DNA of 64,000 nucleotides from a virus (lineage: Duplodnaviria; Caudoviricetes): IMG/VR virus record IMGVR_UViG_3300028797_000108, positions 75,106-139,105 of that record; one strand, 5' to 3'. The notes beneath the pieces were generated by a model. The model made no database searches, was not told the DNA's origin, and saw only the letters and a list, made by a program, of their open reading frames with translations. Positions 2,473 to 61,772 of this stretch are shown here, piece after piece (within the stretch, counting starts at the first letter, position 1; every line of letters starts with the position of its first letter). A program made the position numbers and the translations under genes.

Positions 2473-3133
2473 AATGTGCCTCCAATGTTCCTGTAAAAAT
2501 ACCATTAACGACAATGCCGTTCGTAGACAAGCATGTGCCAGCAATGAAAGCAGGACAAGGCGGCGTTGATGTGACAGCCATCTGCAGATATCTTGATTCT
2601 AGCTCACAGAACTTATATGCGTCAAGCGCTGTGCCTAACGCCTTTACCGCAGCCATGAACTGAGCGCCATACATTGCGTAATGCGCCGAGCTCATCATAA
2701 CAACGCCCATACTGTTGCATACATAAGGAACAACAGGAGCAGACTGCAGCTCAGCAACGCTTCGGGTCGTTGATGATACGCGGTTAAAGTTCAATGACAT
2801 CTTGCTGCCGAACAGGTTAAACAGGTTGATGAACGACATTTCTGGAACACCACACCACAAGGCAGCCTTCACCTCACTTTCAGTCAAACGAATATGATTT
2901 GGAACGAAGTATCCAAAATTGTTAGCCACAGGAGTCGTAATCGGCGGGGAGAATGGAAGGACAGTCACTCCAGTCACTGGTAAGTGCCTTTTACCAAACT
3001 CATCTTCAAGTTCCTTCATATACTTGTTCAGCGCTTTTGTGGTATTCCTGATATAGAATTCCATATCGGGATTGTCACCTTCCAATCGCAACTGCGGATT
3101 TATCAACGGTCTCATGTGGGTTTCAAAACTCAT
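2450..3133 (-). CDS. Hypothetical late (virion?) protein
   Basis: 227 aa ORF directly behind TATAAATA late promoter. Confidence 0.75.
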   Translation of the reverse strand: MSFETHMRPLINPQLRLEGDNPDMEFYIRNTTKALNKYMKELEDEFGKRHLPVTGVTVLPFSPPITTPVANNFGYFVPNHIRLTESEVKAALWCGVPEMSFINLFNLFGSKMSLNFNRVSSTTRSVAELQSAPVVPYVCNSMGVVMMSSAHYAMYGAQFMAAVKALGTALDAYKFCELESRYLQMAVTSTPPCPAFIAGTCLSTNGIVVNGIFTGTLEAHFAAAATV

Positions 3134-7323: not shown

Positions 7324-7793
7324 TGAACGTTCAAGAAAGACTCCGGTTTACGGCTGACTTCATTGACGCTGCTATCCGTGAGACTAATTCAACCTGCTTT
7401 CAGCACAGAATCGTCGATCACGAGCCTGCGTATGAGCTGTTTGTAAAGGACTGTCCTCGTGCCCATAATTTATATGGGTCTGGCAATGACGCCTGCTGGA
7501 TCATATTGTTAAAGCCGCATCAGGAACATTTCAGGTGCTATACAGTAGTTTCTTCTAGAGCGGATGCGATTAAGTTTTTCATCGAGAACGACCTAGAACT
7601 GCAGTATACAAAGATCTGCGACGGTAAAGATGTGATCCCATTCTCGCAATTTAAGAATGGCACGGAAGCCGGTGAATTTGCGGCAGCTAAAATAAACGCA
7701 GTTTTTGATCTTATGGATATTGCTGAAAAACTGTCCAAAAAGGCCAAAAAACTGGCAGAAGCTGAATTTGAGAAAGTTCCGTTCTTAAAATGA
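7323..7793 (+). CDS. Hypothetical early protein, distant paralog of 6769..7323
   Basis: TAATG coupling; shared C-terminal pattern. Confidence 0.75.
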   Translation: MNVQERLRFTADFIDAAIRETNSTCFQHRIVDHEPAYELFVKDCPRAHNLYGSGNDACWIILLKPHQEHFRCYTVVSSRADAIKFFIENDLELQYTKICDGKDVIPFSQFKNGTEAGEFAAAKINAVFDLMDIAEKLSKKAKKLAEAEFEKVPFLK

Positions 7794-7852
7794 TGGAAAC
7801 ACAACTAAAGAAGACGGGTGGAAAAATAATGATTTTGACTCAATTTTGACCA

Positions 7853-7892
7853 TTGACGGCGTATTGAAAAATAATTATATTTTACTCGTAAA
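7853..7892 (+). promoter_or_regulatory. Early promoter
   Basis: TTGACG-17-TATATT then TTACTCGTAAA. Confidence 0.8.
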
Positions 7893-7938
7893 TTGAAAAC
7901 AAACTGATAACTGAAACCCCTTTAACCAAGGACAAAAC

Positions 7939-9186
7939 ATGGCTGATATTGCTACTGTGAAATCTTTGCTCCGTAAGATGAGCCCCTCCCACACCCCGAT
8001 GATTCAGGGTATCCACGGTACTGGAAAGACCGAAGTTGTTCGCCAGCTTTGCGCTGAACCGGACGGCTGGAACCTTCGCTGCTGCGAACTTCAGGGTTCT
8101 CAGCTCTCTGACGTTGGTGACCTTATCGGTCTCCAGAAGATCATTGAATATGAAGAAGAAGTGGAAGTCTTCGTAGACGGCAAACCCGTGAAGACCACGG
8201 TGAAGCGTCAGGAAACTGCGTGGATTCCGCCTTACTGGTTCCCGAAGGACGGCAAGCCGTTCTGCCTCTTCTTGGACGAAATCAACCGTGCTGCGCCGCC
8301 TATCAAGCGTGCAATGATGCAGATCGGTAACGACCATCGCCTCTTGAATTTTGAACTTCCGGAAGGCTCCCGCGTGGTTTGCGCCATCAACCCGGACAAT
8401 GAAGGTAACTACGACGTTGAAGAATTTGACGACGCCGAAAACGACCGTTACTGGAAGATCTTGTTCACCCCGACCATTCAGGAATGGATTTTCCATGCCC
8501 GCAAGATCGGCGTTCTGGACTGTATCATTTCCTACATTGAAGCCCATGAAGAAGACCTTGACCCGTATGCAATGGCAGGCAAGGTGAAGACCAAGGGCTC
8601 CAACGACGAAGTTGACCAGCTCGGCGTTAAGCAGTCTCGCCGTTCTTGGGTTCGCCTTTCCAAGGATATGGTTCGTGCCCTTGAAATTGACCCGGATGCT
8701 TACAGCGGTCCTAAGGGCAACGCTGAACTCCGTTTGCTCGCTGCCGGTTGGGTAGGTGAAGCGATTGCTCAGAACTTCGCTTCCTGGTACCAGCAGCACG
8801 GCGCTGGCTTGCAGCCTAACCAGATTATTGAAGCTGACCCGAGCGACAAGAAGATCTGGGCAAAGCTCAAGAAGATGGGTGAAGCTCAGTCGCTCGAAAC
8901 CCTTCGCCTCGGCTCCGCAATTTGCGGCTACCTCCAGAAGGTTGAAGATAAGCTCGTAGAAAAGTCCAAGCCGACTGAATACGGTAAGCTTGTCGCCGAC
9001 AACTGGTATAAGTTCCTTACCAGCATCCCGAAGGAAGTGGCTGCTCAGGTGAACATGCAGGGCGTGGAAGCTGCTCGTAAGCAGAACCAAAAGGACCCGT
9101 CCACCTGCAAGTGGGTTGCTCGCCTCTCGGCGATAAATGAAAAGGTCTGCGACTTCTACATTGACCTCGCTGACTACGATGTGTAA
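7939..9186 (+). CDS. MoxR-family AAA+ ATPase
   Basis: Walker A GIHGTGKT, DLIGL, Walker B LFLDEINRA, AINP sensor, SRRSW motif. Confidence 0.9.
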   Translation: MADIATVKSLLRKMSPSHTPMIQGIHGTGKTEVVRQLCAEPDGWNLRCCELQGSQLSDVGDLIGLQKIIEYEEEVEVFVDGKPVKTTVKRQETAWIPPYWFPKDGKPFCLFLDEINRAAPPIKRAMMQIGNDHRLLNFELPEGSRVVCAINPDNEGNYDVEEFDDAENDRYWKILFTPTIQEWIFHARKIGVLDCIISYIEAHEEDLDPYAMAGKVKTKGSNDEVDQLGVKQSRRSWVRLSKDMVRALEIDPDAYSGPKGNAELRLLAAGWVGEAIAQNFASWYQQHGAGLQPNQIIEADPSDKKIWAKLKKMGEAQSLETLRLGSAICGYLQKVEDKLVEKSKPTEYGKLVADNWYKFLTSIPKEVAAQVNMQGVEAARKQNQKDPSTCKWVARLSAINEKVCDFYIDLADYDV

Positions 9187-9227
9187 AACCCTGCGGGAGG
9201 GTAATTCCCGCAATTTCCTTGGTTGGG

Positions 9228-9255
9228 ATGGGCGGCAGCAATGCCGCCCATTTTT
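9228..9255 (+). terminator. Rho-independent terminator
   Basis: ATGGGCGGCA-GCAA-TGCCGCCCAT-TTTT. Confidence 0.8.
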
Positions 9256-9314
9256 CGTCAATTCCGCAGATATGTAAATTTTTTGACAAAAATCATATTT
9301 TTTCATATCAACTA

Positions 9315-9354
9315 TTGACAAAAACCGTGGAAATTGTTATTATTTACTCGTAAA
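9315..9354 (+). promoter_or_regulatory. Early promoter
   Basis: TTGACA-17-TATTAT then TTACTCGTAAA. Confidence 0.8.
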
Positions 9355-9371
9355 CTAAGGGATTTTGAATT

Positions 9372-11345
9372 ATGGCTGAAAAGAACTACTACCTTGATAC
9401 AACTGGCATGGCTTGGGAACCCGTCCTCGCACATGCCCGCAACACTATCGCGGAAGCGATGAAAATTCTGCAGCTTGAACCGGCTGCAATGCTTTACCTT
9501 TCAATTTGTGAAATGGTTCCCATCAATGATAAGGATGTGACGCTGCGTCTTGCGACTGCGAACGCTGGCGGTCAAATTCAGCTCCAGTATAACCCGTATT
9601 GGATTTGCCGTTTGAATGACGCATCCGAATTGGCTTTCGCATTTTTCGGCGAAAGTTTGCGCATCGCCTTGCACCACGCCACTCACCGCCGTGCTATGCC
9701 GGCTGCGCCGCACAAGTTCGCCTCCGACTTGATTTGCTTTGAAAACCAGAAGCTCTTGTCCAAGTGGCGTTCCGATGTTAAAGAAATTTTGAAAAACCTG
9801 CCGTCTTACAGTCAGATCGCCCCTGCCATTGAACCGATGGGCTTCAAGAAGCGCGATATGTGGCAGCTTGAAAAGATCCGCGACTACCTGCGCCGCGTGC
9901 AGGAACAAATGCAACAGAAGAAGCAGGGTCAGGGTCAACCCCAGCAGGGTCAAGGCCAGGGCCAGCAGGGCCAGAGCTCCCAAAATCAAAATGGGCAGGG
10001 CCAGCAGTCGCAGCAGGGCCAAGGACAAGGACAACAGCAACAGTCCGGTCAGGGTCAGGGTCAGCAACAGCAGGGCCAAGGACAAGGACAACAGCAACAG
10101 TCCGGTCAGGGTCAGGGTCAGCAACAGCAGGGCCAAGGACAAGGACAACAGCAACAGCAGCAAGGCCAAGGAAACGGCCAAGGCCAACAGCAGCAGGGTC
10201 AGGGCCAGAACGGTCAGCAACAGCAGGGCCAAGGACAAGGTCAGCAGCAGCAAGGCCAAGGACAGGGACAGGGCCAAGGTCAGAACGGCGAAGGCCAAGA
10301 TCAAAACGGTCAGGGTCAGGGCCAGGGACAGGACGGTCAGGGTCAGGGTCAAAACGGACAAGGCTCCGGTAACGGCCAAGATCAACAGCAGGGCCAGAAC
10401 GGTCAGGGACAAGGTGGCGGCCAAGGCGGCCAGCAGGGTCAAGACCAGGGTCAGGGCGATGACGGTTCTTCCTCGGGTGACCAGGGTGCCAACCAGGGTG
10501 ACCGCAGCGATCCGTCCCACGGTTCCAACGGCCTTGACAGCTCGGCAGACTGCGGTGACCTTCGCGGCGACAATGCTCCGAAGAACAGCAGCAATGATAC
10601 GGGCAACGCCTTGAATGAACACTTTGCGGCTGACGAACGCCACGCTCGTAAGGCTACCCAAGAATGGGGTGAAAACACTCTTGTCCAGCAGGAAATCCGT
10701 AGCATCACCAAGCACCTCGGTTCTAACCCTGAACTTTGGGGTTCCATGCCTGGTGAACTTCAGGAAATGATTCGCCGTGCCAACACGCCGAAGTTTGACC
10801 CGACTCCGATTATCAAGCACTGGAAGCAGACTATTCAGTCTGAAGAATACTATGATACTCGTGCCAAGGCAAACAGACGCCACGGCTTTGACAGACCTGG
10901 CTGGCGCCACAAGATGAAGAGCTCGATGGTGGAATGCGTGGACGCTTCCGGTTCTATGAGCGACCGCGATGTTGCGGCAGGTGAAGCATTTGTGAACCTG
11001 TTCATCAAGCACTGCGAAACTTGGTTCTGTTATTGGGACGCTGCCTGCGGTCCGATTGAACCTGTCAAGAAGAAGCGTAAGGGTGACCTCAACCTCGAGA
11101 ACATGAGAGGCGGTACCGATCCCCGTTGCATCATTGACAGAATTGAAAAGGAAAGATTGCAGTTCGGCGGTATCTTGGTGTTCACTGACTGTGGCTTTGA
11201 CTGGCCGCGTCCGAAGACTAAGTACCTGAACAAGATCTTCATCATCGGCACGGAAAACTGCTGTGCTCCTCCGAGCTGGTGCCGCCACTTCCTGAACATC
11301 AAGGACATCAAGAAGTGGATGAAGGACCAGAACTTCGAGTTCTAA
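9372..11345 (+). CDS. VWA-domain partner of the MoxR ATPase (DUF2201-like) with long Gln/Gly linker
   Basis: C-terminal MIDAS VDASGSM..GGT..VFTD; N-terminal peptidase-like domain (LQYNP) with HExxH position reading GESLR; central Q/G tract. Confidence 0.85.
   Translation: MAEKNYYLDTTGMAWEPVLAHARNTIAEAMKILQLEPAAMLYLSICEMVPINDKDVTLRLATANAGGQIQLQYNPYWICRLNDASELAFAFFGESLRIALHHATHRRAMPAAPHKFASDLICFENQKLLSKWRSDVKEILKNLPSYSQIAPAIEPMGFKKRDMWQLEKIRDYLRRVQEQMQQKKQGQGQPQQGQGQGQQGQSSQNQNGQGQQSQQGQGQGQQQQSGQGQGQQQQGQGQGQQQQSGQGQGQQQQGQGQGQQQQQQGQGNGQGQQQQGQGQNGQQQQGQGQGQQQQGQGQGQGQGQNGEGQDQNGQGQGQGQDGQGQGQNGQGSGNGQDQQQGQNGQGQGGGQGGQQGQDQGQGDDGSSSGDQGANQGDRSDPSHGSNGLDSSADCGDLRGDNAPKNSSNDTGNALNEHFAADERHARKATQEWGENTLVQQEIRSITKHLGSNPELWGSMPGELQEMIRRANTPKFDPTPIIKHWKQTIQSEEYYDTRAKANRRHGFDRPGWRHKMKSSMVECVDASGSMSDRDVAAGEAFVNLFIKHCETWFCYWDAACGPIEPVKKKRKGDLNLENMRGGTDPRCIIDRIEKERLQFGGILVFTDCGFDWPRPKTKYLNKIFIIGTENCCAPPSWCRHFLNIKDIKKWMKDQNFEF
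10014..10157 (+). repeat. 57-bp tandem repeat (about 2.5 copies) inside the Gln/Gly tract
   Basis: CAGGGCCAAGGACAAGGACAACAGCAACAG starts at 10014, 10071, 10128. Confidence 0.9.
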
Positions 11346-11355
11346 GGAGGGCGCC

Positions 11356-12000
11356 ATGAGCTTTACAGACGCCATCAACGAGCGCTGGGTGGAAGAAGGC
11401 TTGAAGTACCAATTCAAGACTGTCCCGAAGGAGGCTCGTGAGTCCTTCTATGTGCCAGACGATCGGAAGAACCCCTACGGAGGCGGCAAATACATTCAGT
11501 CCGGCTTCGAGCACGTAATCTATGTGGAAGACATCCTAGGGCCTAACTGGCTTTACTACAAAGGCTTGCTACCGAAGTGGTATCAGTGGGGTCCATGGAA
11601 GGAGAAAGGTCCTCCGGTTATCCGTTGGGTTCCCAAGGAGCACCCGCTGAACGCTGATGATAACATTCGTGCACGCGTATGGTATCTGATGTGTCCAGCG
11701 GCGTTGAACCTGACAAGTCTATCAATGGACTTCACGGATGACGGCATGATCCTCTATCAGCAGCACCGCCCGTTCCGCGAAAACACCTCTACGGAAATGC
11801 CCGTGGACCCCAAGGATGTAAAGAAGTGCCTTGACAATGTGGTGAGATCAATACGCGGTTTAGAGCGAGTGAAGGAATTTGCCGAGCCATATCTGGTGCA
11901 GATAAATGATGCAGTAACGGGTTTTCGCCAACAAATAAACAAAATAAAGATTAAAAATAGCCTAATAAACGAGCGCGAAAAACCTAAATTTAAGCAGTAA
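11356..12000 (+). CDS. Hypothetical protein
   Basis: AAGGAGG RBS, 214 aa. Confidence 0.8.
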   Translation: MSFTDAINERWVEEGLKYQFKTVPKEARESFYVPDDRKNPYGGGKYIQSGFEHVIYVEDILGPNWLYYKGLLPKWYQWGPWKEKGPPVIRWVPKEHPLNADDNIRARVWYLMCPAALNLTSLSMDFTDDGMILYQQHRPFRENTSTEMPVDPKDVKKCLDNVVRSIRGLERVKEFAEPYLVQINDAVTGFRQQINKIKIKNSLINEREKPKFKQ

Positions 12001-15347: not shown

Positions 15348-15431
15348 GGCCTTATGGCGGAACTGGTAGACGCTGGGGACTTAAAATCCCCTGCCAGTAA
15401 TGGCGTCCGGGTTCGAGTCCCGGTGGGGCCA
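15348..15431 (+). tRNA. tRNA-Leu(TAA)
   Basis: Cloverleaf, GGGGA-CTTAAAA-TCCCC, long variable arm. Confidence 0.95.
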
Positions 15432-15440
15432 TACATTTTT

Positions 15441-15571
15441 CGGGCGATAGTTCAAGCGGTCGGGAATACTTTCCGAGTAAAACAGAACGATCTCAGACCT
15501 TCGTGCTAGGTCGCGAGAAAACACGAAGTTAGGACGATAGACTTCCCTGGGTTCAAGTCCTGGGGCGCTCG
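15441..15571 (+). ncRNA. tRNA-like RNA with expanded multi-hairpin centre
   Basis: 5' CGGGCGATAGTTCAAGCGG, 3' T-arm CTGGG-TTCAAGT-CCTGG and acceptor strand, followed by CTA; no anticodon loop. Confidence 0.55.
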
Positions 15572-15582
15572 CTAGCTTTTAT

Positions 15583-15656
15583 ACCCTAGTAGCTCAACTG
15601 GATAGAGCAACGCTCTTCTAAAGCGTGGGTTGCAGGTTCGAGTCCTGCCTAGGGTA
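15583..15656 (+). tRNA. tRNA-Arg(TCT)
   Basis: ACGCT-CTTCTAA-AGCGT. Confidence 0.95.
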
Positions 15657-15663
15657 CTTCTTT

Positions 15664-15735
15664 GAGGGTAAAGCTTTGACGGTGAAGCAATAGACTTTTA
15701 ATCTATGGAACCGGCTTCGAGCTCCGGTACCCTCA
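15664..15735 (+). tRNA. tRNA-Lys(TTT)
   Basis: ATAGA-CTTTTAA-TCTAT; atypical T-arm. Confidence 0.85.
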
Positions 15736-15745
15736 CTAAATTTCT

Positions 15746-15816
15746 TGCCGGTTCGTATAGCGGTAGTATAGGGGACTTTGAATCCTTTGGCGTTGGTCCG
15801 ACTCCAGCACCGGCAG
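15746..15816 (+). tRNA. tRNA-Gln(TTG)
   Basis: GGGGA-CTTTGAA-TCCTT. Confidence 0.9.
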
Positions 15817-15880
15817 CTATAGATCACGAGGTGTGCAAATCCCTCAAGCAGAGTGAACTGCGATAACAAGTTAAACTCAA

Positions 15881-15953
15881 CGGCAGATAGCACAATGGTT
15901 AGTGCAGCGGACTCATAACCCGCCGGTTGAAGGTTCAAATCCTTCTTTGCCGA
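15881..15953 (+). tRNA. tRNA-CAT (Ile2 or elongator Met)
   Basis: GCGGA-CTCATAA-CCCGC. Confidence 0.9.
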
Positions 15954-16014
15954 TAGTTAATAAACTGTTGATAAAACTGTGCATTAACTGTATAATTCAA
16001 ATTTTGAACTATTC

Positions 16015-16040
16015 ATGGCGCCCTAAAAAGCGCCATTTTT
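16015..16040 (+). terminator. Rho-independent terminator
   Basis: ATGGCGC...GCGCCAT-TTTT. Confidence 0.65.
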
Positions 16041-16181
16041 CTATCTCAAAACGATGAAATTTAAGCAGTTATATTACAGTAATTTACAGTAAACCGCGTA
16101 GATTGTGTTGATTTAAGCACTGTTGATATATTGTCAATTTGATCATAAATCACTGTAAATAAAAAATTTACATTTCTACCA

Positions 16182-16221
16182 TTGACGGACTTCCAGATAG
16201 TTGTTATATTTTACTCGTAAA
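16182..16221 (+). promoter_or_regulatory. Early promoter
   Basis: TTGACG-17-TATATT-TTACTCGTAAA. Confidence 0.85.
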
Positions 16222-16246
16222 TTGAAAACAACAAGGAAACTGGAAT

Positions 16247-16438
16247 ATGAACAAACAAGAACTGATCCGCGCGCTGATTGAAACCGCCGAAAAGGAAGGC
16301 TCAAACATTCATTTTGACCATCAATTTGGGTGGGACGGTTTTGTTGATTCCAACGGCGAATTCTGGGCTACCGACGGTCACTCCGTCTCCGAAATTTGTC
16401 GCAGAATTTTCAGTGCCTGTCAGGAAGAATTCATCTAA
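16247..16438 (+). CDS. Small hypothetical protein
   Basis: Behind promoter, AAGGA RBS. Confidence 0.75.
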   Translation: MNKQELIRALIETAEKEGSNIHFDHQFGWDGFVDSNGEFWATDGHSVSEICRRIFSACQEEFI

Positions 16439-16450
16439 GGAGAACCGACA

Positions 16451-17023
16451 ATGATTTTGAAAATCAACTACGCTCGTGCCCTTTACGTTGAATCTGACAC
16501 GATCTATCCGGAAGGTCCCAACAGCGACCACACCTATCAAACGGTGCGCTGCGACGGCCGCATCCGCAAGACCTGTTGGTTCCGCCTCGGTGAAGCATTC
16601 TTGAAGTTCCCCGAACATCGCGCGGTCACCCGCAAGGAAATCGCCGCAGTGATGGAACATACCTTCAGCCCTGACGGCACAAAGGATTGGGGCACGGGTA
16701 TCTGGAGTCCGGATATGTGGACGACCTTCGTTCATGATGGCTTCATCAAGAAGTTTCAGAACGGAAATCGCTTCACCTATATGCTCTCCGATTGGGGTCG
16801 CAGGACTACCATCGCAGCGCAGCGCGACTTCAGCAAGGAATTCACGAAGGCAACGCTTCGCATTCAGGCTATGCCCAAATCGGTTGAAGAAGCCAAGCAG
16901 CTCGTCAAGATCAAGTTTGACAAGCACGAGAATTACCTCGCCCGCAAGGCCGCAGGTTTTCCGAAAAAGAAGGCTCGCCTCGCAAAGGCTGCCCTCCGCG
17001 CTGAAGCAAAAATTTTGAAATAA
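16451..17023 (+). CDS. Hypothetical basic protein
   Basis: AAGGAG RBS, 190 aa. Confidence 0.8.
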   Translation: MILKINYARALYVESDTIYPEGPNSDHTYQTVRCDGRIRKTCWFRLGEAFLKFPEHRAVTRKEIAAVMEHTFSPDGTKDWGTGIWSPDMWTTFVHDGFIKKFQNGNRFTYMLSDWGRRTTIAAQRDFSKEFTKATLRIQAMPKSVEEAKQLVKIKFDKHENYLARKAAGFPKKKARLAKAALRAEAKILK

Positions 17024-17048
17024 AATGAAAAAAATTCAAAATTTACCC

Positions 17049-17088
17049 TTGACAGTTCAAAATTAAATTGTTATATTTTAACTGTTGA
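17049..17088 (+). promoter_or_regulatory. Early promoter with no downstream ORF
   Basis: TTGACA-17-TATATT. Confidence 0.75.
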
Positions 17089-17094
17089 AATTGA

Positions 17095-17372
17095 ACAACT
17101 ACTGCCTCTGGTTCAACGCCGCGGGCCACGCAGGACAACAAAAACCCACGCGGTTCACCTACTGCCCATCCTAGGAAGGGCGACAACTTGGAGATTGAAA
17201 TGAAACTTTTGACGTGTATGTAGAACGGTTTGAGCTTTCATCGTATCAGCTCATCAATGATTGGGGCGATGAAGGCGAGCGGATTTTGATCCCACCGTTG
17301 CGGTAGGCCTAGATGAGCGTTGCTCGAGTTGCAGAAGATCCTCGGAAAAATCTTCACGGGCGTCACCCGGAA
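17095..17372 (+). ncRNA. Candidate structured ncRNA
   Basis: Between two promoters, no substantial ORF, several hairpins. Confidence 0.4.
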
Positions 17373-17391
17373 AAAATTGACAAAAATACCC

Positions 17392-17425
17392 TTGACAGTT
17401 TCAGAAAACTATTTTATATTTGATA
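17392..17425 (+). promoter_or_regulatory. Promoter of main tRNA cluster; late promoter TATAAATA also at 17507-17514
   Basis: TTGACA-17-TATATT. Confidence 0.75.
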
Positions 17426-17532
17426 CTGTCAAAACAAAATCAATCCCGAGCGGATTTGATTGCAGCTTGAAATAGCGGAAACACAAGATTTTGAAAAGTT
17501 GTTGTTTATAAATATGAATAACAACTGAACAT

Positions 17533-17605
17533 GCCTCGGTGGCGCAATTGGTAGCGCAGCGGACTCTTAATCCGTGGGTTGAAGGTTCGAGTCCTTCCCG
17601 GGGCA
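17533..17605 (+). tRNA. tRNA-Lys(CTT)
   Basis: GCGGA-CTCTTAA-TCCGT. Confidence 0.95.
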
Positions 17606-18221
17606 CTACTGGACAAGATCGCGTCAAACTGAAGAGGATTGTTAGTAGTAGCGAAGTACAAGCTATGAACAGGGTTGCTAGTAGGTTTGATGGCAACGCG
17701 TGCAGACCCCACCGATGAGGAGGGGTGAACTGCAGAGGAACCCGACCTGGGGGCGCATCGGGGTGAGTCTTGACAATTTGATGAAAGCGAATCATCGCAA
17801 GTCGTTGGATGTAGTTATAAATGGAAAAACAGGGTCCGCTTCGGCGAGCTCATAATTGTGGGTCCGACTCCCACCGTCCGTAAAACGATTCTGTGAGTAG
17901 TCAAAGGGCTAATCTAAAGCTTGCCTCCAATGCGAAAAAAGCTGAGCGTGCCACCGGCGAGCGATGGTGGGGTTACAGCATAACCACAAAGCTGCACAAT
18001 GCAAGATCGCCTTCGGCAGATAGTTCAAGCGTAGAACATCGGGTTGTCCCCGAAGATTACTGGGTAAAAGCCAAGGCTACCAGAAGTCACCGATTGTTGC
18101 ATATCCTGCTTGGGTCGCGGTTGGTCCCGTGAGACTCGCTCAGGCTTGGTTGAAGGTTCAACAAGTAAAAGAGGACTTAGGCTTGCTTGGCGCCTTAAGC
18201 CTAACCAGCACAAGCATTATT

Positions 18222-18295
18222 GGGGTCATAGCTCAATTTGGTAGAGCACTAGCTTTGCAAGCTAGGGGTTCCGGGTTCGAGTCCCGGTGGCTCCA
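18222..18295 (+). tRNA. tRNA-Ala(TGC)
   Basis: CTAGC-TTTGCAA-GCTAG, G3-U70. Confidence 0.95.
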
Positions 18296-18306
18296 CGAAA
18301 CATTTC

Positions 18307-18668
18307 GGGCTCCCTCCGCCATTTGCAAGTAAGACAAAGAAGGCACGACAAACCGAAAGTAGTTACATTGGTTGCTCTTTGTGGCTGCGATCTTGGTCCT
18401 TCCTAATGAAAGTACCATACAAAGGAGTAGGTAGATCCGTGAAGGAATCGCTCTAAGCTGGAGTAGATCGGATCGGGAATCGCTGAAACGACCGAAGATG
18501 CCTATAACAGAAAGGTTGATGGTGTGCAGCTAGCACTGTCGCTGAAGTAAATGTGCGGCATTGGAAGGATGGAAACGGTGAGGCGGTATACTGATGGGAC
18601 AGGGATAAGCTCCTGACTTTTAGGTATATGTGGTAGCCACTGTGGAGGTTCAAATCCTTCGGTGCCCA
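18307..18668 (+). ncRNA. About 360-nt candidate RNA ending in a tRNA-like T-arm and acceptor strand
   Basis: GGGCTCC (18307) can pair with GGTGCCC (18661); T-arm GGAGG-TTCAAAT-CCTTC; followed by A+CTA like the tRNAs. Confidence 0.4.
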
Positions 18669-18679
18669 CTAATTATTAT

Positions 18680-18753
18680 TGGATTGTAGCTCAGTTTGGT
18701 AGAGCGGTCGGCTGTTAACCGATTGGTCGCAGGTTCGAGTCCTGCCTTTCCAG
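18680..18753 (+). tRNA. tRNA-Asn(GTT)
   Basis: GTCGG-CTGTTAA-CCGAT. Confidence 0.9.
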
Positions 18754-18780
18754 CTAAACGCCGATTAGGCAACATTTTCT

Positions 18781-18856
18781 GTGCTATAGCCGTCCGCAGG
18801 AATCGGACGCCGGCAGTCGCCGGAAATCAGTGGTTCAATTCCACTCGTAGCCACCA
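18781..18856 (+). ncRNA. tRNA-like RNA with 4-nt anticodon loop and encoded CCA
   Basis: CCGGC-AGTC-GCCGG, T-arm AGTGG-TTCAATT-CCACT, ends GCCACCA. Confidence 0.55.
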
Positions 18857-18970
18857 AAGGAAATGGCTTGGTTAAGATAACCTCAACATCAAGTAGCCGA
18901 AAGGTGTGGGACACTTGACGATCAGACAACTCGAGTAATGCTGAACGCTTGAGTCCCAGCGCTTTTGATT

Positions 18971-19043
18971 GCCTGTATAGCTCAGCTGGTAGAGCAGCGG
19001 CTTTGTAACCCGCAGGTCGGGGGTTCGGATCCCTCTGCAGGCG
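18971..19043 (+). tRNA. tRNA-Thr(TGT)
   Basis: GCGGC-TTTGTAA-CCCGC. Confidence 0.9.
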
Positions 19044-19181
19044 CTAATGGTTGAATGTTGGGTATCCTATAGGAATAAACAATAGCCTATAGGTGGACCG
19101 AGCCCCGTTCTGTAATGGGATGGGTGCCCGCATTTCACAATGCCGGTAGTCCGGTGGTGGCGGAACCACCTTAAAAACTTG

Positions 19182-19256
19182 CGGGCTGTAGCTCAGTCTG
19201 GCTAGAGCACTTGATTTGGGATCAAGGGGTCGTGGGTTCAAATCCCGCCAGCCCGA
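19182..19256 (+). tRNA. tRNA-Pro(TGG)
   Basis: CTTGA-TTTGGGA-TCAAG. Confidence 0.95.
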
Positions 19257-19265
19257 TAACATTAT

Positions 19266-19338
19266 TGCGGAGTGGAGCAGTGGTTAGCTCGGCAGCCTCA
19301 TAAGCTGAAGGTCGTGGGTTCAAGTCCCACCTCCGCTA
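19266..19338 (+). tRNA. tRNA-Met(CAT), initiator-like
   Basis: fMet-like body (GCGGAGTGGAGCAG), 1:72 mismatch, CTCATAA loop; lacks the three G-C anticodon-stem pairs. Confidence 0.85.
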
Positions 19339-19350
19339 CTAAAAGTATTT

Positions 19351-19436
19351 GCCAGTGCGCCGACGTTGGAGAGTCGGACCGGACTGTAAATCCGGGGCCC
19401 TCACGGGCTTTGGTGGTTCAAATCCACCCTCTGGCA
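19351..19436 (+). tRNA. tRNA-Tyr(GTA)
   Basis: CCGGA-CTGTAAA-TCCGG, long variable arm. Confidence 0.9.
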
Positions 19437-19450
19437 CGAAAAGAATTTTT

Positions 19451-19522
19451 GGCTCCTTGGTCTAGAGGTTAGGACACCACATTTTCAATGTGAGAACCCG
19501 GGTTCGAGTCCCGGAGGAGCTA
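19451..19522 (+). tRNA. tRNA-Glu(TTC)
   Basis: Glu-type D-arm GTCTAGAGGTTAGGAC; CACA-TTTTCAA-TGTG. Confidence 0.9.
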
Positions 19523-19681
19523 CTAAGCCTCGGATGGCATCGTTTGATTATGGCAAGACGCCCACGCGAAGTGGGAAAGAGCGGTCCGAATCCGCTTGCC
19601 TGAACAGTGAGTACACGGTCTGGGGCTAGGAGCAAAAAGCTGAGAGACGTCGTAGGTGTATTGCTCCGGTACTTTTGAATT

Positions 19682-19752
19682 GGGTTCATAGTTTAATGGA
19701 TGAATACCGGCTTGTCACGCCGGCGGTACGGGATCGTGACCCGTTGGACCCG
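19682..19752 (+). tRNA. tRNA-Asp(GTC)
   Basis: CCGGC-TTGTCAC-GCCGG; atypical T-loop ATCGTGA. Confidence 0.85.
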
Positions 19753-19759
19753 CTAAAAA

Positions 19760-19977
19760 TTGCTGTTTGACAAATCAGGTGAACTGCAGATAGCCTGAGG
19801 CGTTGATTGCGGTTTGAGGTCCGGCGACGGCTGGATGCAAAGGAATAGCCGGAAGCGCGGTTCTAGAGGAAGTTCCTCAGGAGCCGGTGAAGGGAGGCCC
19901 CAAAAGGGCATTAAAACAACGGCGGGAAGGCACCCTCTAAAGAGCTCTGAATATGCAGCCCTCAGAGCAAACAGCAA
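19760..19977 (+). ncRNA. Candidate 218-nt multi-hairpin RNA
   Basis: Perfect 10-bp closing stem TTGCTGTTTG/CAAACAGCAA spanning the whole gap between two tRNAs. Confidence 0.55.
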
Positions 19978-19981
19978 CTAT

Positions 19982-20055
19982 CGGCATGCATAACGATTGG
20001 TTCGTTTGCCACTCTGATAAGGTGGAGATTGAAGGTTCAACTCCTTCCGTGCCGA
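19982..20055 (+). tRNA. tRNA-Ile(GAT)
   Basis: CCACT-CTGATAA-GGTGG. Confidence 0.9.
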
Positions 20056-20058
20056 CTA

Positions 20059-20118
20059 AAGATACTTACAGCAAAGTTATCAACATTCTTTTTTTGGTAG
20101 AATCGCAAAGGTATCTTG
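20059..20118 (+). ncRNA. Scaffold RNA copy A (short hairpin cargo)
   Basis: AAGATACT-TACAGCAA...GGTATCTTG. Confidence 0.6.
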
Positions 20119-20123
20119 ATTAT

Positions 20124-20196
20124 GCCGCGGTAGCCTAGGTGGTCATGGCGCGGGACTGAAAATCCTGAGATGTTGGTCCGATTCCAACCCTCGGCA
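20124..20196 (+). tRNA. tRNA-Phe(GAA)
   Basis: CGGGA-CTGAAAA-TCCTG. Confidence 0.9.
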
Positions 20197-20209
20197 CTAA
20201 AACAATTAT

Positions 20210-20281
20210 AGCGGGGAGAGGATGGTTCCTCCGCCGGTCTCATAAGCCGTGCTTCTGCAGGTTCGAGTCCTGCCGCCGCTA
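20210..20281 (+). tRNA. tRNA-Met(CAT), atypical D-arm
   Basis: CGGT-CTCATAA-GCCG, canonical T-arm. Confidence 0.75.
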
Positions 20282-20285
20282 CTAT

Positions 20286-20369
20286 GGCCTACTGGCGGAA
20301 CTGGTAGACGCGCCTGACTTAGGATCAGGTGCCCGTGAGGGCGTGGGAGTTCGAGTCTCTCGTAGGTCA
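20286..20369 (+). tRNA. tRNA-Leu(TAG)
   Basis: CCTGA-CTTAGGA-TCAGG. Confidence 0.95.
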
Positions 20370-20389
20370 CTAAAACACAAGGAGTTATT

Positions 20390-20596
20390 ATGACTGAACA
20401 AGAAGCAAAAAGAGCAAAAGAAATTGAAGCAATGCTGAATTGGAATTTGCAGCGATCCCAGGCCTTGGGTGAATTCCCTTTGCCCGTCACTTGTGGTATC
20501 ACTCAGATCTTTAACTGCGTTCAGTCTGAAAGGGCGGCTGCTTGGAAGCGCAAGAATGATATTGCGAACGGGCGAGTCCCTGATTCGGTTCCGTAG
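20390..20596 (+). CDS. Small hypothetical protein inside the tRNA cluster
   Basis: AAGGAG RBS, 68 aa; stop codon lies inside tRNA-Arg. Confidence 0.65.
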   Translation: MTEQEAKRAKEIEAMLNWNLQRSQALGEFPLPVTCGITQIFNCVQSERAAAWKRKNDIANGRVPDSVP

Positions 20597-20662
20597 CTCA
20601 GTCGGATTTAGAGCGCCACGCTACGAACGTGGAGGTCCCAGGTTCGAGTCCTGGCGGAACTA
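20587..20662 (+). tRNA. tRNA-Arg(ACG)
   Basis: CCACG-CTACGAA-CGTGG. Confidence 0.95.
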
Positions 20663-20719
20663 CTAAAGCGGTTTGGGTGGAGGTACGTCGCCGTTATAAA
20701 TATCTCAAATCGCTTTTAT

Positions 20720-20803
20720 GCTTACATGAATCCGAGCGGCAAAGGACGCAGTCTGCAAAACTGCGGGCGAAAGCCTTCGCAGGTTCGAGTCCTGCTGTAA
20801 GCT
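20720..20803 (+). tRNA. tRNA-Cys(GCA) with long variable arm
   Basis: GCAGT-CTGCAAA-ACTGC, U73, variable hairpin GGC-GAAA-GCC. Confidence 0.85.
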
Positions 20804-20809
20804 CTAATA

Positions 20810-20935
20810 AAGATAGAGACAGCAAAATTAAATGCTATCCCAAGGCTGAAACGAGGGGTCCGAATCCCCTCATGGAGGTTGGTCTTCCATTCGTCTAGTG
20901 GTCTAGGACTCAGCCAAAGCAAAAAATCTATCTTG
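20810..20935 (+). ncRNA. Scaffold RNA copy B carrying a circularly permuted tRNA (CCC anticodon-like)
   Basis: AAGATAGA/TCTATCTT stem; T-arm, sealed acceptor stem, D-arm in that order. Confidence 0.75.
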
Positions 20936-20939
20936 TCTT

Positions 20940-21023
20940 GGAGGGTTAGCCTAACGGTAAGGCAGCGGTCTTGAAAACCGCCGCGGGGAAACTCGCTTGT
21001 AGGTTCAAATCCTGCACCCTCCG
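20940..21023 (+). tRNA. tRNA-Ser(TGA)
   Basis: GCGGT-CTTGAAA-ACCGC, long variable arm. Confidence 0.95.
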
Positions 21024-21037
21024 CTAAAACATTTTAA

Positions 21038-21109
21038 GTCCCATTGGTGTAGTGGTAGCACGTCTCCTTGCCATGGAGAAGGTCGCCGGTCCGAATCCGG
21101 CATGGGGCT
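21038..21109 (+). tRNA. tRNA-Gly(GCC)
   Basis: TCTCC-TTGCCAT-GGAGA. Confidence 0.9.
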
Positions 21110-21113
21110 CTAT

Positions 21114-21240
21114 AGATACGCACAGCAATGTTAAAGCATGGTCTGATAAACCCCGTGTTGCAGGTTCGAGTCCTGTCGGGTCGCTGAAAGGTGACCTGTA
21201 GCTCAATCGGTAGAGCAGGAAAAGCAAAAAACGTATCTTG
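21114..21240 (+). ncRNA. Scaffold RNA copy C carrying a circularly permuted tRNA (GAT anticodon-like)
   Basis: AGATACG/CGTATCT stem; anticodon loop, T-arm, GAAA-capped acceptor stem, D-arm. Confidence 0.75.
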
Positions 21241-21245
21241 TATAA

Positions 21246-21316
21246 GTCCTATTGGTGTAGTGGTAACATTTCTGCCTTCCAAGCAGGTGTGGCGAGTTCG
21301 AGTCTCGCATAGGGCT
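21246..21316 (+). tRNA. tRNA-Gly(TCC)
   Basis: TCTGC-CTTCCAA-GCAGG. Confidence 0.9.
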
Positions 21317-21319
21317 CTA

Positions 21320-21442
21320 AAGGTGCTCTCAGCTAAATTTTCATAGGAAAATTCTAGAGTAGTATAATTGGTTATTACACCCTCCGATAAAAGAGGGAGA
21401 TCCTGGTTCGAGTCCAGGCGCCAGACCCCGAAAGGCATCTTG
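21320..21442 (+). ncRNA. Scaffold RNA copy D enclosing a degenerate tRNA in normal order
   Basis: AAGGTGCT/GGCATCTT stem, CAGCTAA; inner D-arm, CCCTC/GAGGG arm with 8-nt loop, T-arm. Confidence 0.65.
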
Positions 21443-21450
21443 ATCTTACC

Positions 21451-21522
21451 CCCGTGGTAGTGTAATGGTTAGCACACGAGCTTGTGGCGCTCGTAGTTCG
21501 GATTCGAGTTCCGGCCTTGGGA
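21451..21522 (+). tRNA. tRNA-His(GTG)
   Basis: CGAGC-TTGTGGC-GCTCG; no encoded G-1, A73. Confidence 0.85.
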
Positions 21523-21525
21523 TAT

Positions 21526-21599
21526 ACCTCCGTGGCGCAGTGGTTTAGCGCGGCTGCCCTACAAGCAGCGGGTCGTAGGTTCAACTCCTACCGGGGGTA
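21526..21599 (+). tRNA. tRNA-Val(TAC)
   Basis: GCTGC-CCTACAA-GCAGC (C33). Confidence 0.9.
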
Positions 21600-21603
21600 C
21601 TAT

Positions 21604-21675
21604 TGGGGCGTGGTGTAATTGGTAACACGCATGACTCTGACTCATGAATTCTTGGTTCAAGTCCAGGCGCCCCAA
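21604..21675 (+). tRNA. tRNA-Gln(CTG)
   Basis: CATGA-CTCTGAC-TCATG. Confidence 0.95.
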
Positions 21676-21755
21676 CTATGGTGACCCAAAGCCAAAACAA
21701 ATTGGGTCGTTTCTAGTGAGTAGCCTTGTAGCTAGATCTGTAATTAAAGGCCCTT

Positions 21756-21828
21756 AGGGATATAGTTCAATTGGTAGAACGGCGGACTCCAAACCCGCGT
21801 GTTAGAGGTTCAAATCCTTTTGTCCCTG
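21756..21828 (+). tRNA. tRNA-Trp(CCA)
   Basis: GCGGA-CTCCAAA-CCCGC. Confidence 0.9.
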
Positions 21829-21832
21829 TTAT

Positions 21833-21916
21833 GGCCGAGTGGCGGAATTGGTAGACGCGGCGGACTCAAAATCCGCTGACCGCGAGGTCGTGAGAGTTCA
21901 AGTCTCTCCTTGGCCA
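21833..21916 (+). tRNA. tRNA-Leu(CAA)
   Basis: GCGGA-CTCAAAA-TCCGC. Confidence 0.95.
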
Positions 21917-21920
21917 CTAT

Positions 21921-22038
21921 AGATACCAACAGCAAAAATGCGTCTTGCTCCTCCTGGGGTTATAGCTCAATTGGTAGAGCACCGCCGACATACTGGCGGG
22001 GGTTGCGGGTTCGAGTCCCGATATGCAATGGTATCTTG
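21921..22038 (+). ncRNA. Scaffold RNA copy E carrying a tRNA-Ala-like body permuted at the T-arm/acceptor junction
   Basis: AGATACCA/TGGTATCT stem; TTGCTCC precedes GGGGTTATAGCTCAATTGGTAGAGC. Confidence 0.7.
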
Positions 22039-22043
22039 ACTTT

Positions 22044-22129
22044 GGAGGAATACACTAATTGGTTAAGTGGCCACCCTGCTAAGGTGGTGTCCCGAAAGGG
22101 GCGTGAAGGTTCAAGTCCTTCTTCCTCCG
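22044..22129 (+). tRNA. tRNA-Ser(GCT)
   Basis: CCACC-CTGCTAA-GGTGG, long variable arm. Confidence 0.95.
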
Positions 22130-22159
22130 TATTGACATTTTTTGACAATTTCTTGTTAG

Positions 22160-22189
22160 CGCCCGAATTGATGAAATTCGGGCGTTTTT
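22160..22189 (+). terminator. Terminator of the tRNA cluster
   Basis: CGCCCGAATT...AATTCGGGCG-TTTTT. Confidence 0.85.
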
Positions 22190-22304: not shown

Positions 22305-22781
22305 ATGAGTATTGATTCCAAACGCCGCTCCGATATCGCCTCCACCCCGTGGGAAAAGCTTGAATATGGCCGTGACCTTACCGATTGTCTTCGCAATGAC
22401 TACCCCGAAAATTATTGTTCTGTTGAAGACCGAAATGAATGGAACGGTTTTGTTTGCGGAAAAGATAAGATGCCGAAGCGCGTCCTGATCCGTGACTCCT
22501 TCATGCGCCGTATGCCTGACGGTCACTGGGTTGAACAGCGTAAGGATTGGGAAGCCCTTGAACTCCTTGATTTTGAAATGAAGGACGCCTACATGATGGG
22601 CAAAACTCCTGAAGGAGAAGAAATTTGGGTGAACCGCACCGTTCACGTCGCAGCCCGTGACTGGGACGAAGCAACGAGAATTTACAACTGGCACAAGGAT
22701 CGCTGGATGAGCTGCGGCTTGATTTCTGGCTGGATGAATTTCTGGACTGACCGTGCCATCAACGCTGAAAAGAAGGCTTAA
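22305..22781 (+). CDS. Hypothetical early protein
   Basis: Behind promoter, AAGGA RBS. Confidence 0.8.
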   Translation: MSIDSKRRSDIASTPWEKLEYGRDLTDCLRNDYPENYCSVEDRNEWNGFVCGKDKMPKRVLIRDSFMRRMPDGHWVEQRKDWEALELLDFEMKDAYMMGKTPEGEEIWVNRTVHVAARDWDEATRIYNWHKDRWMSCGLISGWMNFWTDRAINAEKKA

Positions 22782-61406: not shown

Positions 61407-61584
61407 CTTACTGACCGGAGCGAGACTCAACCCAATGAGCTATCGGCAGGTGTAAGTTGCGACCTAGCAGAGGTGCGGCTAGGGCTGTTCGTATAGTACC
61501 AAAGGATGAACTGTTCACGACAGTTCAGTATGCCGTCACAGGCGTATGGAATGTAGTCCGAGTACAGGGTGACCGCTCGGTAAG
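61407..61584 (+). ncRNA. Candidate structured ncRNA
   Basis: Behind TTGTTATATTTT promoter motif; closing stem CTTACTGA/TCGGTAAG; internal hairpins; no credible ORF. Confidence 0.5.
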
Positions 61585-61772
61585 TCCATTGTAAGTCCTC
61601 TTGCGAAGTCATACAGTTCACCAGTCAAAACAAAGTTTAGATTGATGTTAACTGGAGATTGTGAGTTCCCGATATGGGCTTGCTGTCTCCAGTTACCATA
61701 TCAAACAAAGATTTAGAATTCCCCTTAAATAAATAAAATACAAAAACACAAATAATAGAGAGGAATTTAATC

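Follow-up and report, generated by a model that had tools for sequence, protein, structure and literature searches.

We analysed a 64-kb stretch of Caudoviricetes phage DNA (hereafter the window; the final 64 kb of the 139,105-bp IMG/VR virus record IMGVR_UViG_3300028797_000108, CheckV completeness about 37%), in which a tRNA array occupies positions 15348–22130 of the + strand. The array comprises 29 tRNA-type calls (ARAGORN and Rfam), and embedded in its last 2 kb are five RNA elements that share a terminal stem, a single-stranded motif and a 3′ end, but enclose different interiors. Here we describe these five elements as members of a widespread phage and bacterial RNA family, apparently undescribed, which we name the ACAGCAA-handle RNAs, and we report the genomic linkage of this family to genes for a protein with the domains DUF2828 and DUF7788.

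Five elements in a phage tRNA array

All five elements terminate in ATCTTG (AUCUUG as RNA, with UG unpaired after AUCU), have terminal stems of 7–8 bp with compensatory differences between copies at stem positions 5–7, and carry (A)CAGC(A/U)A directly after the 5′ strand, the variant in element 4 being CAGCUA. These are the features on which an initial annotation of the window had based its claim of five elements in one shared frame between tRNAs, and the claim was borne out: all five lie where it had placed them, with the stems it had listed and with CAGC(A/T)A and the TCTTG end in 5/5. Its ends were correct throughout, as were its starts for elements 3 and 5, whereas elements 1, 2 and 4 start one base later than it had proposed. 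The motif AGRTN5CAGCWA occurs five times in the window, each time at one of the five elements, compared with 0.56 occurrences expected from shuffles. The rest of the 139-kb record holds a single further occurrence (C1:2655), which has neither the handle structure nor a match to the covariance model R1 introduced below, and a relaxed regular-expression scan of the whole record returned noise, with 23 candidates (1–8 in plain shuffles) of which only the five elements have the handle ends. Each element begins 3–6 nt past the preceding tRNA and stops 4–8 nt short of the next; elsewhere in the same array, tRNAs abut directly without handle elements between them.

The smallest of the five, element 1 (20060–20118, + strand), is of a 'mini' type that has no tRNA-like part: its 59 nt comprise an 8-bp stem (AGAUACUU with AGGUAUCU), ACAGCAA, a small hairpin interior and the 3′ UG (structure by RNAfold), and it sits 3 nt past tRNA-Ile and 5 nt ahead of tRNA-Phe. 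Elements 2 and 3 each have a 7-bp stem, ACAGCAA and a tRNA-like cargo in the arm order of YrlA Y RNAs, with the acceptor closed and the anticodon arm absent. In element 2 (20811–20935, +), this cargo is a permuted tRNA-Glu-like body that runs from T-arm through an acceptor closed by a UUGGU loop to D-arm, and compensatory changes preserve the T, acceptor and D stems in same-cargo counterparts from two other contigs (L008:1649-1777 and L035:2011-2142). In elements of this type, the handle CAGC can also pair with the GCUG of the cargo junction helix (20820–20853; an alifold alternative), because that helix has the same CAGC on its 3′ side; a conformational switch and a coincidence are both possible explanations. 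The cargo of element 3 (21114–21240, +) likewise consists of T-arm, closed acceptor and D-arm, and alifold identified 10 pairs with compensatory changes among 10 sequences of its type.

The remaining two cargos are unpermuted. Element 4 (21321–21442, +) has the stem AGGUGCU with GGCAUCU, whose two G-U pairs work only on the + strand as RNA, and its cargo is a 5′ hairpin followed by a degenerate tRNA with a mismatched acceptor (5/7 pairs) and an 8-nt anticodon loop. ARAGORN reports this body as a 'tRNA-???' with a 4-base anticodon (21353–21428), so that one of the 29 calls in the array is the cargo of element 4, both ends of the tRNA body continuing into the handle. A similar architecture was found between tRNA-Gly(gcc) and tRNA-His in the matching part of the L035 array (L035:6420-6549). 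Element 5 (21921–22038, +) combines an 8-bp stem and ACAGCAA with a short closed hairpin, then a D arm, an anticodon-like arm (6- or 8-nt loop) and a T arm; it has no 3′ acceptor strand and matches the Rfam tRNA model at 30.7 bits over model positions 6–65 (21961–22023). None of elements 2–5 has the seven-pair, free-ended acceptor and 7-nt anticodon loop of a functional tRNA. The cargo types first assigned to the five elements are thus borne out, namely a hairpin, two tRNAs opened in the anticodon arm, an unpermuted degenerate tRNA and a tRNA opened at the T/acceptor junction.

The handle-RNA family and its neighbouring ring-protein gene

Across the family, the handle is built on a terminal stem of 6–9 bp: single-stranded (A)CAGCAA begins 0–3 nt past the 5′ strand, the sequence leading into the 3′ strand is rich in A, and a final (U)G stays unpaired. 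A handle-only pattern (AGATAC, three free bases, CAGCAA, a gap of 85–115 nt and GTATCTTG), which captures the AGATAC/GTATCT version of the stem, had matches in 35 IMG/VR contigs, placing the family in at least 35, and family members were also recovered from cultured phages and from rumen and gut bacteria. A scan of the pattern-bearing loci under looser rules yielded 94 distinct elements, mostly several per locus, with a bimodal length distribution (44–95 and 106–149 nt), and 104 of 129 candidates began with AGA although the rule did not impose it. Interiors were very diverse, spanning YrlA-type permuted tRNAs, D-anticodon-T bodies (some with regular, intact 7-nt anticodon loops, for example in contigs L013, L023 and L006), non-tRNA interiors and tandem 60-nt mini units. 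A same-strand tRNA lay within 10 nt of 44 of 82 family members, with typical spacers of 3–5 nt upstream and 4–7 nt downstream.

To search by structure, we trained a covariance model (R1) on 26 short elements from other phages, leaving out all window sequence and giving it the 7-bp stem as its only structure. Its top five matches in the window were exactly the five elements, with the same ends: 40.3 bits for element 1 (E = 4e-6, full model covered) and 19.8, 24.4, 18.5 and 21.1 bits for elements 2 to 5, respectively (E = 0.009–0.16 for these four long elements). The next match scored 12.8 bits, and the 139-kb record held nothing beyond the five; further afield, the model recovered the family across phages and bacteria. 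Stem pairing was maintained among 87 distinct R1 matches, with 93.7% of cells paired, double changes in six of the seven pairs, and 117 double-change cells compared with 33 ± 6.5 in shuffles, a count reached by 0 of 500 shuffles; the covariation score was 0.51 versus at most 0.10 for slid registers. Covariation in homologues, by which the initial annotation had proposed to tell the elements from decayed tRNA duplications, is therefore present, and pairing is also kept via compensatory changes in the helices of cargos like those of elements 2 and 3. Together, the G-U pairs and the constant strand orientation suggest that the structure is formed at the RNA level. We found no Rfam family for the handle RNAs, nor any description in the literature of the family or of its pairing with a DUF2828-type protein.

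A blastn search with element 3 led to Enterococcus phage Ben, in which four handle RNAs lie directly upstream of a gene for a 510-aa protein where DUF2828, DUF7788 and, weakly, vWA are recognised (hereafter the ring protein, for reasons given below). This four-RNA array has its own consensus promoter and terminator, ahead of the promoter of the gene. Each of the four RNAs follows a ~55-nt module (L036, 3567–3620, 3755–3805, 3910–3960 and 4090–4142) in which three small helices covary and the junction AUAAAG is conserved; these modules have no Rfam match and may replace a flanking tRNA as a processing signal. Overall, DUF7788 was found in 17 of 31 handle-bearing records and in 6 of the 7 that are ≥90% complete, compared with a base rate for the ring-protein gene of 706 in 50,697 cultured phage records (1.4%).

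The linkage also held when we started from the protein. Among cultured phages of eight lineages that carry the gene, handle RNAs were found by scan or model within 3 kb of it in six (Ben, Bacillus PK-3, Listeria LP-048, Campylobacter PC14, Sinorhizobium phiN3 and Citrobacter Mordin). Mycobacteriophage Tyson has three handle RNAs, recognised by eye only, right after the gene and before a terminator, and KVP40 has only one long by-eye candidate, ~3 kb from the gene. In 80 bacterial-genome loci chosen by protein similarity alone, R1 (at E ≤ 0.1) gave 98 matches in 53 loci, 94 of them on the strand of the gene and almost all within ~800 nt upstream of its start. These loci include the rumen isolates Ruminococcus albus AR67, R. 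flavefaciens ND2009 and Ruminococcus sp. XPD3002, the last with seven tandem handle RNAs (read by eye). Phage K, which produces abundant non-coding RNAs beside its tRNAs (PMC9241854), served as a negative control: those RNAs are not family members, and phage K has neither handle matches nor the gene.

Pfam assigns no TROVE domain to the DUF2828–DUF7788 protein, and with a sequence profile drawn from eleven members, PDB yielded nothing beyond a weak vWA match. In contrast to these sequence comparisons, an AlphaFold2 model (mean predicted local distance difference test score of 77) matched Ro60 structures over nearly its full length, with Foldseek returning Ro60/TROVE entries for all of the top 11 listed PDB matches (E = 4.5e-7 to 2e-4; template modelling scores 0.36–0.59). 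These included the Ro60 of Thermus phage phiLo (9KOP, 9L5Y), Xenopus Ro (1YVR, 1YVP, 2I91), Deinococcus Rsr (2NVO) and human Ro60 (9NEN and complexes), after which only generic vWA domains stood among the matches listed. The protein is thus predicted, from this model, to be a Ro60-fold ring (a HEAT ring plus vWA). As some members are already labelled 'Ro-like RNA binding protein' in GenBank, the Ro-likeness of the protein is not new, and the undescribed part is the RNA family and its pairing with this protein. The Y-RNA-like protein link anticipated by the initial annotation therefore stands in that a Ro60-fold protein is genomically tied to the RNAs, but the family concerned is DUF2828–DUF7788 rather than TROVE. 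From this genomic linkage, we predict that the handle RNAs are RNA partners of the ring protein.

Two short contigs, L035 and L008, show where the gene can lie relative to such an array. Both have a clearly syntenic tRNA array with the same tRNA order near its end, the same-cargo counterpart of element 2, a handle element just ahead of the final tRNA-Ser(gct), and the ring-protein gene 0.8–1.6 kb after the array. In the last slot before tRNA-Ser(gct), L035 and L008 hold a YrlA-type cargo, whereas the window holds one of the D, anticodon, T type, so this slot shows cargo exchange. A GH10 xylanase-like gene of L035 (10588–12384) is 73–82% identical to G000:C1:15584-17395 in the present record, where this homologue lies ~75 kb away from the array. 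In searches for relatives, the open reading frame (ORF) just after the array (22305–22781) yielded none, and terminase relatives in IMG/VR were all short contigs and at most 57% identical. A 657-aa protein of the window led to one larger relative, G031 (184 kb, 54% complete), which has handle RNAs near its end and no DUF7788; as the contig ends ~1.2 kb past its last handle RNA, this absence is uninformative. Homologues of this 657-aa protein were also found in ENA/Logan contigs of 220–257 kb, the two closest being 89–91% identical.

Several neighbouring genes in other phages form a genomic context that may point to RNA damage and repair. In Listeria phage LP-048 (L068), a cluster at 7810–11464 encodes an RtcB-like ligase, a DUF1768 protein and a putative RNA ligase, 1.3–4 kb downstream of the DUF2828 gene and its two handle RNAs. 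Further neighbours of the ring gene are a macro-domain protein in phiN3 and, in L035, a histidine-phosphatase-superfamily gene (7730–8326) between the tRNA array and the ring-protein gene, after which the GH10 gene follows. Some handle-bearing arrays contain a transfer-messenger RNA (tmRNA; L019, 7441–7791) and suppressor-type tRNAs (anticodon cta in L009, L018 and L019, and tta in L015 at 3019–3093), and these contigs (CUA and UUA anticodons) hint at stop-codon reassignment in those phages.

Other features of the window were recorded alongside the five elements, all on the + strand. An intrinsic-terminator-like hairpin (22158–22186; 12 bp and a T run) lies 28 nt after the last tRNA and closes the array. 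Between tRNA-Phe and tRNA-Leu, a tRNA-sized element without an ARAGORN call (20210–20280) has a T-arm, a CUCAUAA loop (CAU anticodon) and a weak match to the tRNA-Sec model (25 bits, E = 0.18), and may be an odd or degenerate tRNA. Two non-tRNA spacers in the array, 19524–19681 (158 nt, with a T-arm-like hairpin inside) and 19754–19981 (228 nt), contain neither a handle nor an Rfam family, and the tRNA-Ile after the second scores just 29.3 bits with Rfam. A small ORF of ~65 codons (20391–20586) lies within the array and ends right at the start of tRNA-Arg(acg). Upstream of the array, at 7939–11345, an AAA_5 (MoxR/CobS-like) ATPase gene is followed by that of the 657-aa protein (9372–11345), which has a C-terminal vWA MIDAS motif; the two form a common phage pair. 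We considered the 657-aa protein as a hidden partner of the handle RNAs and rejected it: PF13203 (DUF2201_N) is found in its homologues, and its alignment with the ring protein is confined to the MIDAS motif. Finally, the Rfam cow-rumen-2 RNA (RF02947), a motif of unknown function, was detected at 61501–61603 (74.1 bits, gathering score 66), consistent with a rumen origin.

Comparison with Y RNAs and Dictyostelium Class I RNAs

To our knowledge, Ro60/Y-RNA particles occur in animals, some bacteria and a few phages, and always pair a TROVE protein with a CGAA-type RNA motif. Like YrlA Y RNAs, the handle RNAs are bipartite: one part is a terminal stem whose 5′ strand leads into a conserved single-stranded motif, the other a tRNA-like domain that runs from T-arm through closed acceptor to D-arm. 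Both kinds of RNA gene lie, often in several copies, beside the gene for a Ro60-fold HEAT-ring/vWA protein (for YrlA, also in mycobacteriophages). Unlike YrlA, the handle RNAs have no second helix between handle and tRNA-like domain, have a conserved 3′ UG tail and far more varied interiors, score under the Rfam threshold, and are partnered by the DUF2828–DUF7788 family rather than TROVE. They also carry ACAGCAA in place of GNCGAAN0-1G, the motif near the 5′ end that defines YrlA and is the presumed contact of Rsr (Chen et al. 2014, PMC4201824). The Rfam YrlA consensus displays GGCGAAUG, and the model aligns nothing of the window elements to that motif.

Among the five elements, only element 3 matched the Rfam YrlA model (RF02553; 42.8 bits, E = 5e-7, full model aligned), below the gathering score of 69 and with the T-arm, closed acceptor and D-arm, rather than the terminal stem, supplying the score. 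Elements 1, 2, 4 and 5 had no YrlA match at E ≤ 10, and the YrlA arm order is present in elements 2 and 3 but not in elements 1, 4 and 5. The novelty of the elements, which a strong hit to a described family would have removed, therefore stands after the Rfam check.

Thermus phage phiLo resembles the present system in encoding a Ro60-fold protein, phiRo60, with small RNAs just upstream of its gene (PMC12135203), and phiRo60 (PDB 9KOP, 9L5Y) is the best structural match to the DUF2828-type model. It differs in that the protein is identified in UniProt as a Ro60 homolog, and in that its RNAs, Yrl1 and Yrl2, have the CGAA motif in a stem-bulge-stem and no tRNA-like cargo has been described for them (PMC12135203). 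The complexes that phiRo60 forms with host PNPase in vitro (PMC12135203) provide a precedent for how such a ribonucleoprotein (RNP) could work. The Y RNA Yrn1 of D. radiodurans has, like elements 4 and 5, tRNA-like D and T arms in unpermuted order, and it tethers the ring protein Rsr to the exonuclease PNPase in the RYPER complex (PMC4201824). Yrn1 differs in its binding motif and protein family and lies outside any tRNA operon.

Class I RNAs of Dictyostelium, which measure 42–65 nt, are built in the same way as element 1 and the 'mini' class: a 6-bp stem joins the two ends, CCUUACAGCAA immediately follows its 5′ strand, the interior varies and is often rich in A, and the 3′ UG is left unpaired (Kjellin et al. 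2021, PMC7919456). Element 1 agrees with them in its stem, ACAGCAA (7 of the 11 motif nucleotides), 3′ UG and size of 59 nt, but departs from them in the first four bases of the motif, and the other four window elements are twice that length. Class I RNAs are also eukaryotic, with a first pair that is G-C rather than A-U and no known tRNA-like cargo, and they are reported as dictyostelid-only and as having their own DUSE promoter (PMC7919456), unlike the window elements, which are phage genes in a bacterial-type tRNA operon. This is a striking resemblance rather than membership. That a DUF2828-type ring and handle RNAs form one ancient RNP class spanning bacteria, phages and the so far orphan Dictyostelium Class I RNAs, with this phage, which has five such RNAs but no ring gene in its sequenced part, capturing or re-aiming the ring protein of its host during infection, is a possible but rather unlikely extension.

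Function of the handle RNAs and competing explanations

We consider it likely that the handle RNAs are bipartite, with a constant handle that binds the DUF2828–DUF7788 Ro60-fold ring and an exchangeable effector interior. A modular protein handle joined to a tRNA mimic, as a divergent or new class of Y RNA, was what the initial annotation had proposed, and it is supported by the conservation of the handle, the swapped interiors and the genomic tie to a Ro60-fold protein. The same annotation had suggested that the RNAs may serve as decoys or as adaptors for RNA repair or degradation. By analogy with Ro60, which contacts a conserved stem and 5′-strand motif of Y RNAs (PMC4201824, PMC12135203), the handle would be the binding site of the ring protein. 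The interior, which can be empty, a hairpin or a tRNA body of any of three topologies, would be an effector module that, as suggested by Y RNAs and by PNPase in RYPER, might tether the ring to tRNA-recognising enzymes or exonucleases, or gate substrate access. In the window, the RNAs would be co-transcribed within the tRNA operon and cut out by the enzymes that process the flanking tRNAs: RNase P for the tRNA downstream, and RNase Z or an enzyme like it for the tRNA upstream.

Several points weigh against this interpretation. We found no binding, expression or end-mapping data for any family member. DUF2828, DUF7788 and TROVE (PF05731) are all absent from the 139-kb record, which is ~37% complete, and the position after the array of the window is occupied by the terminator, a promoter-like site and unrelated small ORFs, with no ring gene. 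The sequence profile of the protein has no Ro60 match in PDB, Ro60 being reached by fold comparison only; the location of the bacterial RNAs, just upstream of the gene on the same strand, would also suit a cis-acting leader; and the known direct binder of Class I RNAs is the RRM protein Rnp1A, which is not Ro-like (PMC7919456). Because the ring gene is missing from its expected place, the partner would come from the host or be encoded in the 63% of the genome that lies outside the record; a host origin is plausible because rumen bacteria encode the same protein–RNA pair. The other RNA-related genes for which the initial annotation had suggested looking elsewhere in the genome did not appear either: TROVE, RtcB and CCA-adding enzyme genes were all absent from the 139 kb, RNA ligase families not being searched.

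The resemblance to YrlA raises the question of whether these are canonical YrlA-type Y RNAs that bind a phage or host TROVE Ro60/Rsr, as in Salmonella, M. smegmatis and mycobacteriophages. The exact YrlA order of elements 2 and 3 and the full-model RF02553 match of element 3 would fit, as would the existence of Y RNAs with another arm order, such as Yrn1 (PMC4201824). However, that match falls short of the gathering score and derives from the tRNA-like domain, not the stem; ACAGCAA replaces GNCGAAN0-1G; and the record contains no TROVE gene, the family-wide neighbour being a protein without a Pfam TROVE domain, which together make this identity decidedly unlikely. Still less probable is that the elements are processing punctuation or cis-regulatory structures (nuclease entry sites or DUF2828 leaders) with no separate RNA function. 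Their tight packing between tRNAs would suit punctuation, and the bacterial elements just upstream of the gene would suit leaders, but other tRNAs in the array abut without such elements, the window elements are far from any such gene, the phage Ben array is a stand-alone promoter-to-terminator unit ahead of the promoter of the gene, and the variable cargos are maintained by compensatory changes that punctuation does not need.

Phage tRNA arrays have been reported to counter tRNA-targeting defences, and the elements could be protein-independent decoys whose tRNA-like cargos absorb tRNA-targeting defence nucleases or toxins, the handle only stabilising the ends. The placement of the elements in a phage tRNA array and the intact 7-nt anticodon loops of some members are in keeping with such a role. 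It is nonetheless an unlikely one for the family, given that a tRNA part is missing from element 1 and all of the 'mini' class, YrlA-type cargos lack the anticodon loop that is the usual nuclease target, bacteria encode the same RNAs beside the ring-protein gene, and a stabilising stem needs neither an invariant ACAGCAA nor the UG. Decay of duplicated tRNAs with chance inverted repeats would explain why ARAGORN and Rfam see degenerate tRNAs in elements 4 and 5. Set against it are the five motif occurrences where 0.56 were expected, the conservation of the handle in unrelated phages and bacteria, the covarying stem and the compensatory changes in cargo stems; family-wide conservation, R1 matches, covariation and the bacterial loci effectively refute this origin.

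If the handle RNAs do bind the ring protein, the pair would be a second version of the Ro60/Y-RNA system, with another protein family and another RNA handle, and apparently a much more widespread one: members of the ring-protein family occur in 1.4% of cultured phage records and in the genomes of hundreds of bacterial species, the handle RNAs having been checked in samples of these. The design of the system is plainly modular, with one handle for many tRNA-like or non-tRNA cargos and, in the lineage of this phage, the same slot holding differing cargo. The family also accounts for unassigned spacers and 'tRNA-???' calls in phage tRNA clusters, where annotation pipelines miss or miscall odd tRNA-like genes of large phages. 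Together, these findings may offer a way in to three questions: what Y-like RNAs tether to the ring, why large phages have odd tRNA-like genes in their tRNA arrays, and what binds Class I RNAs.

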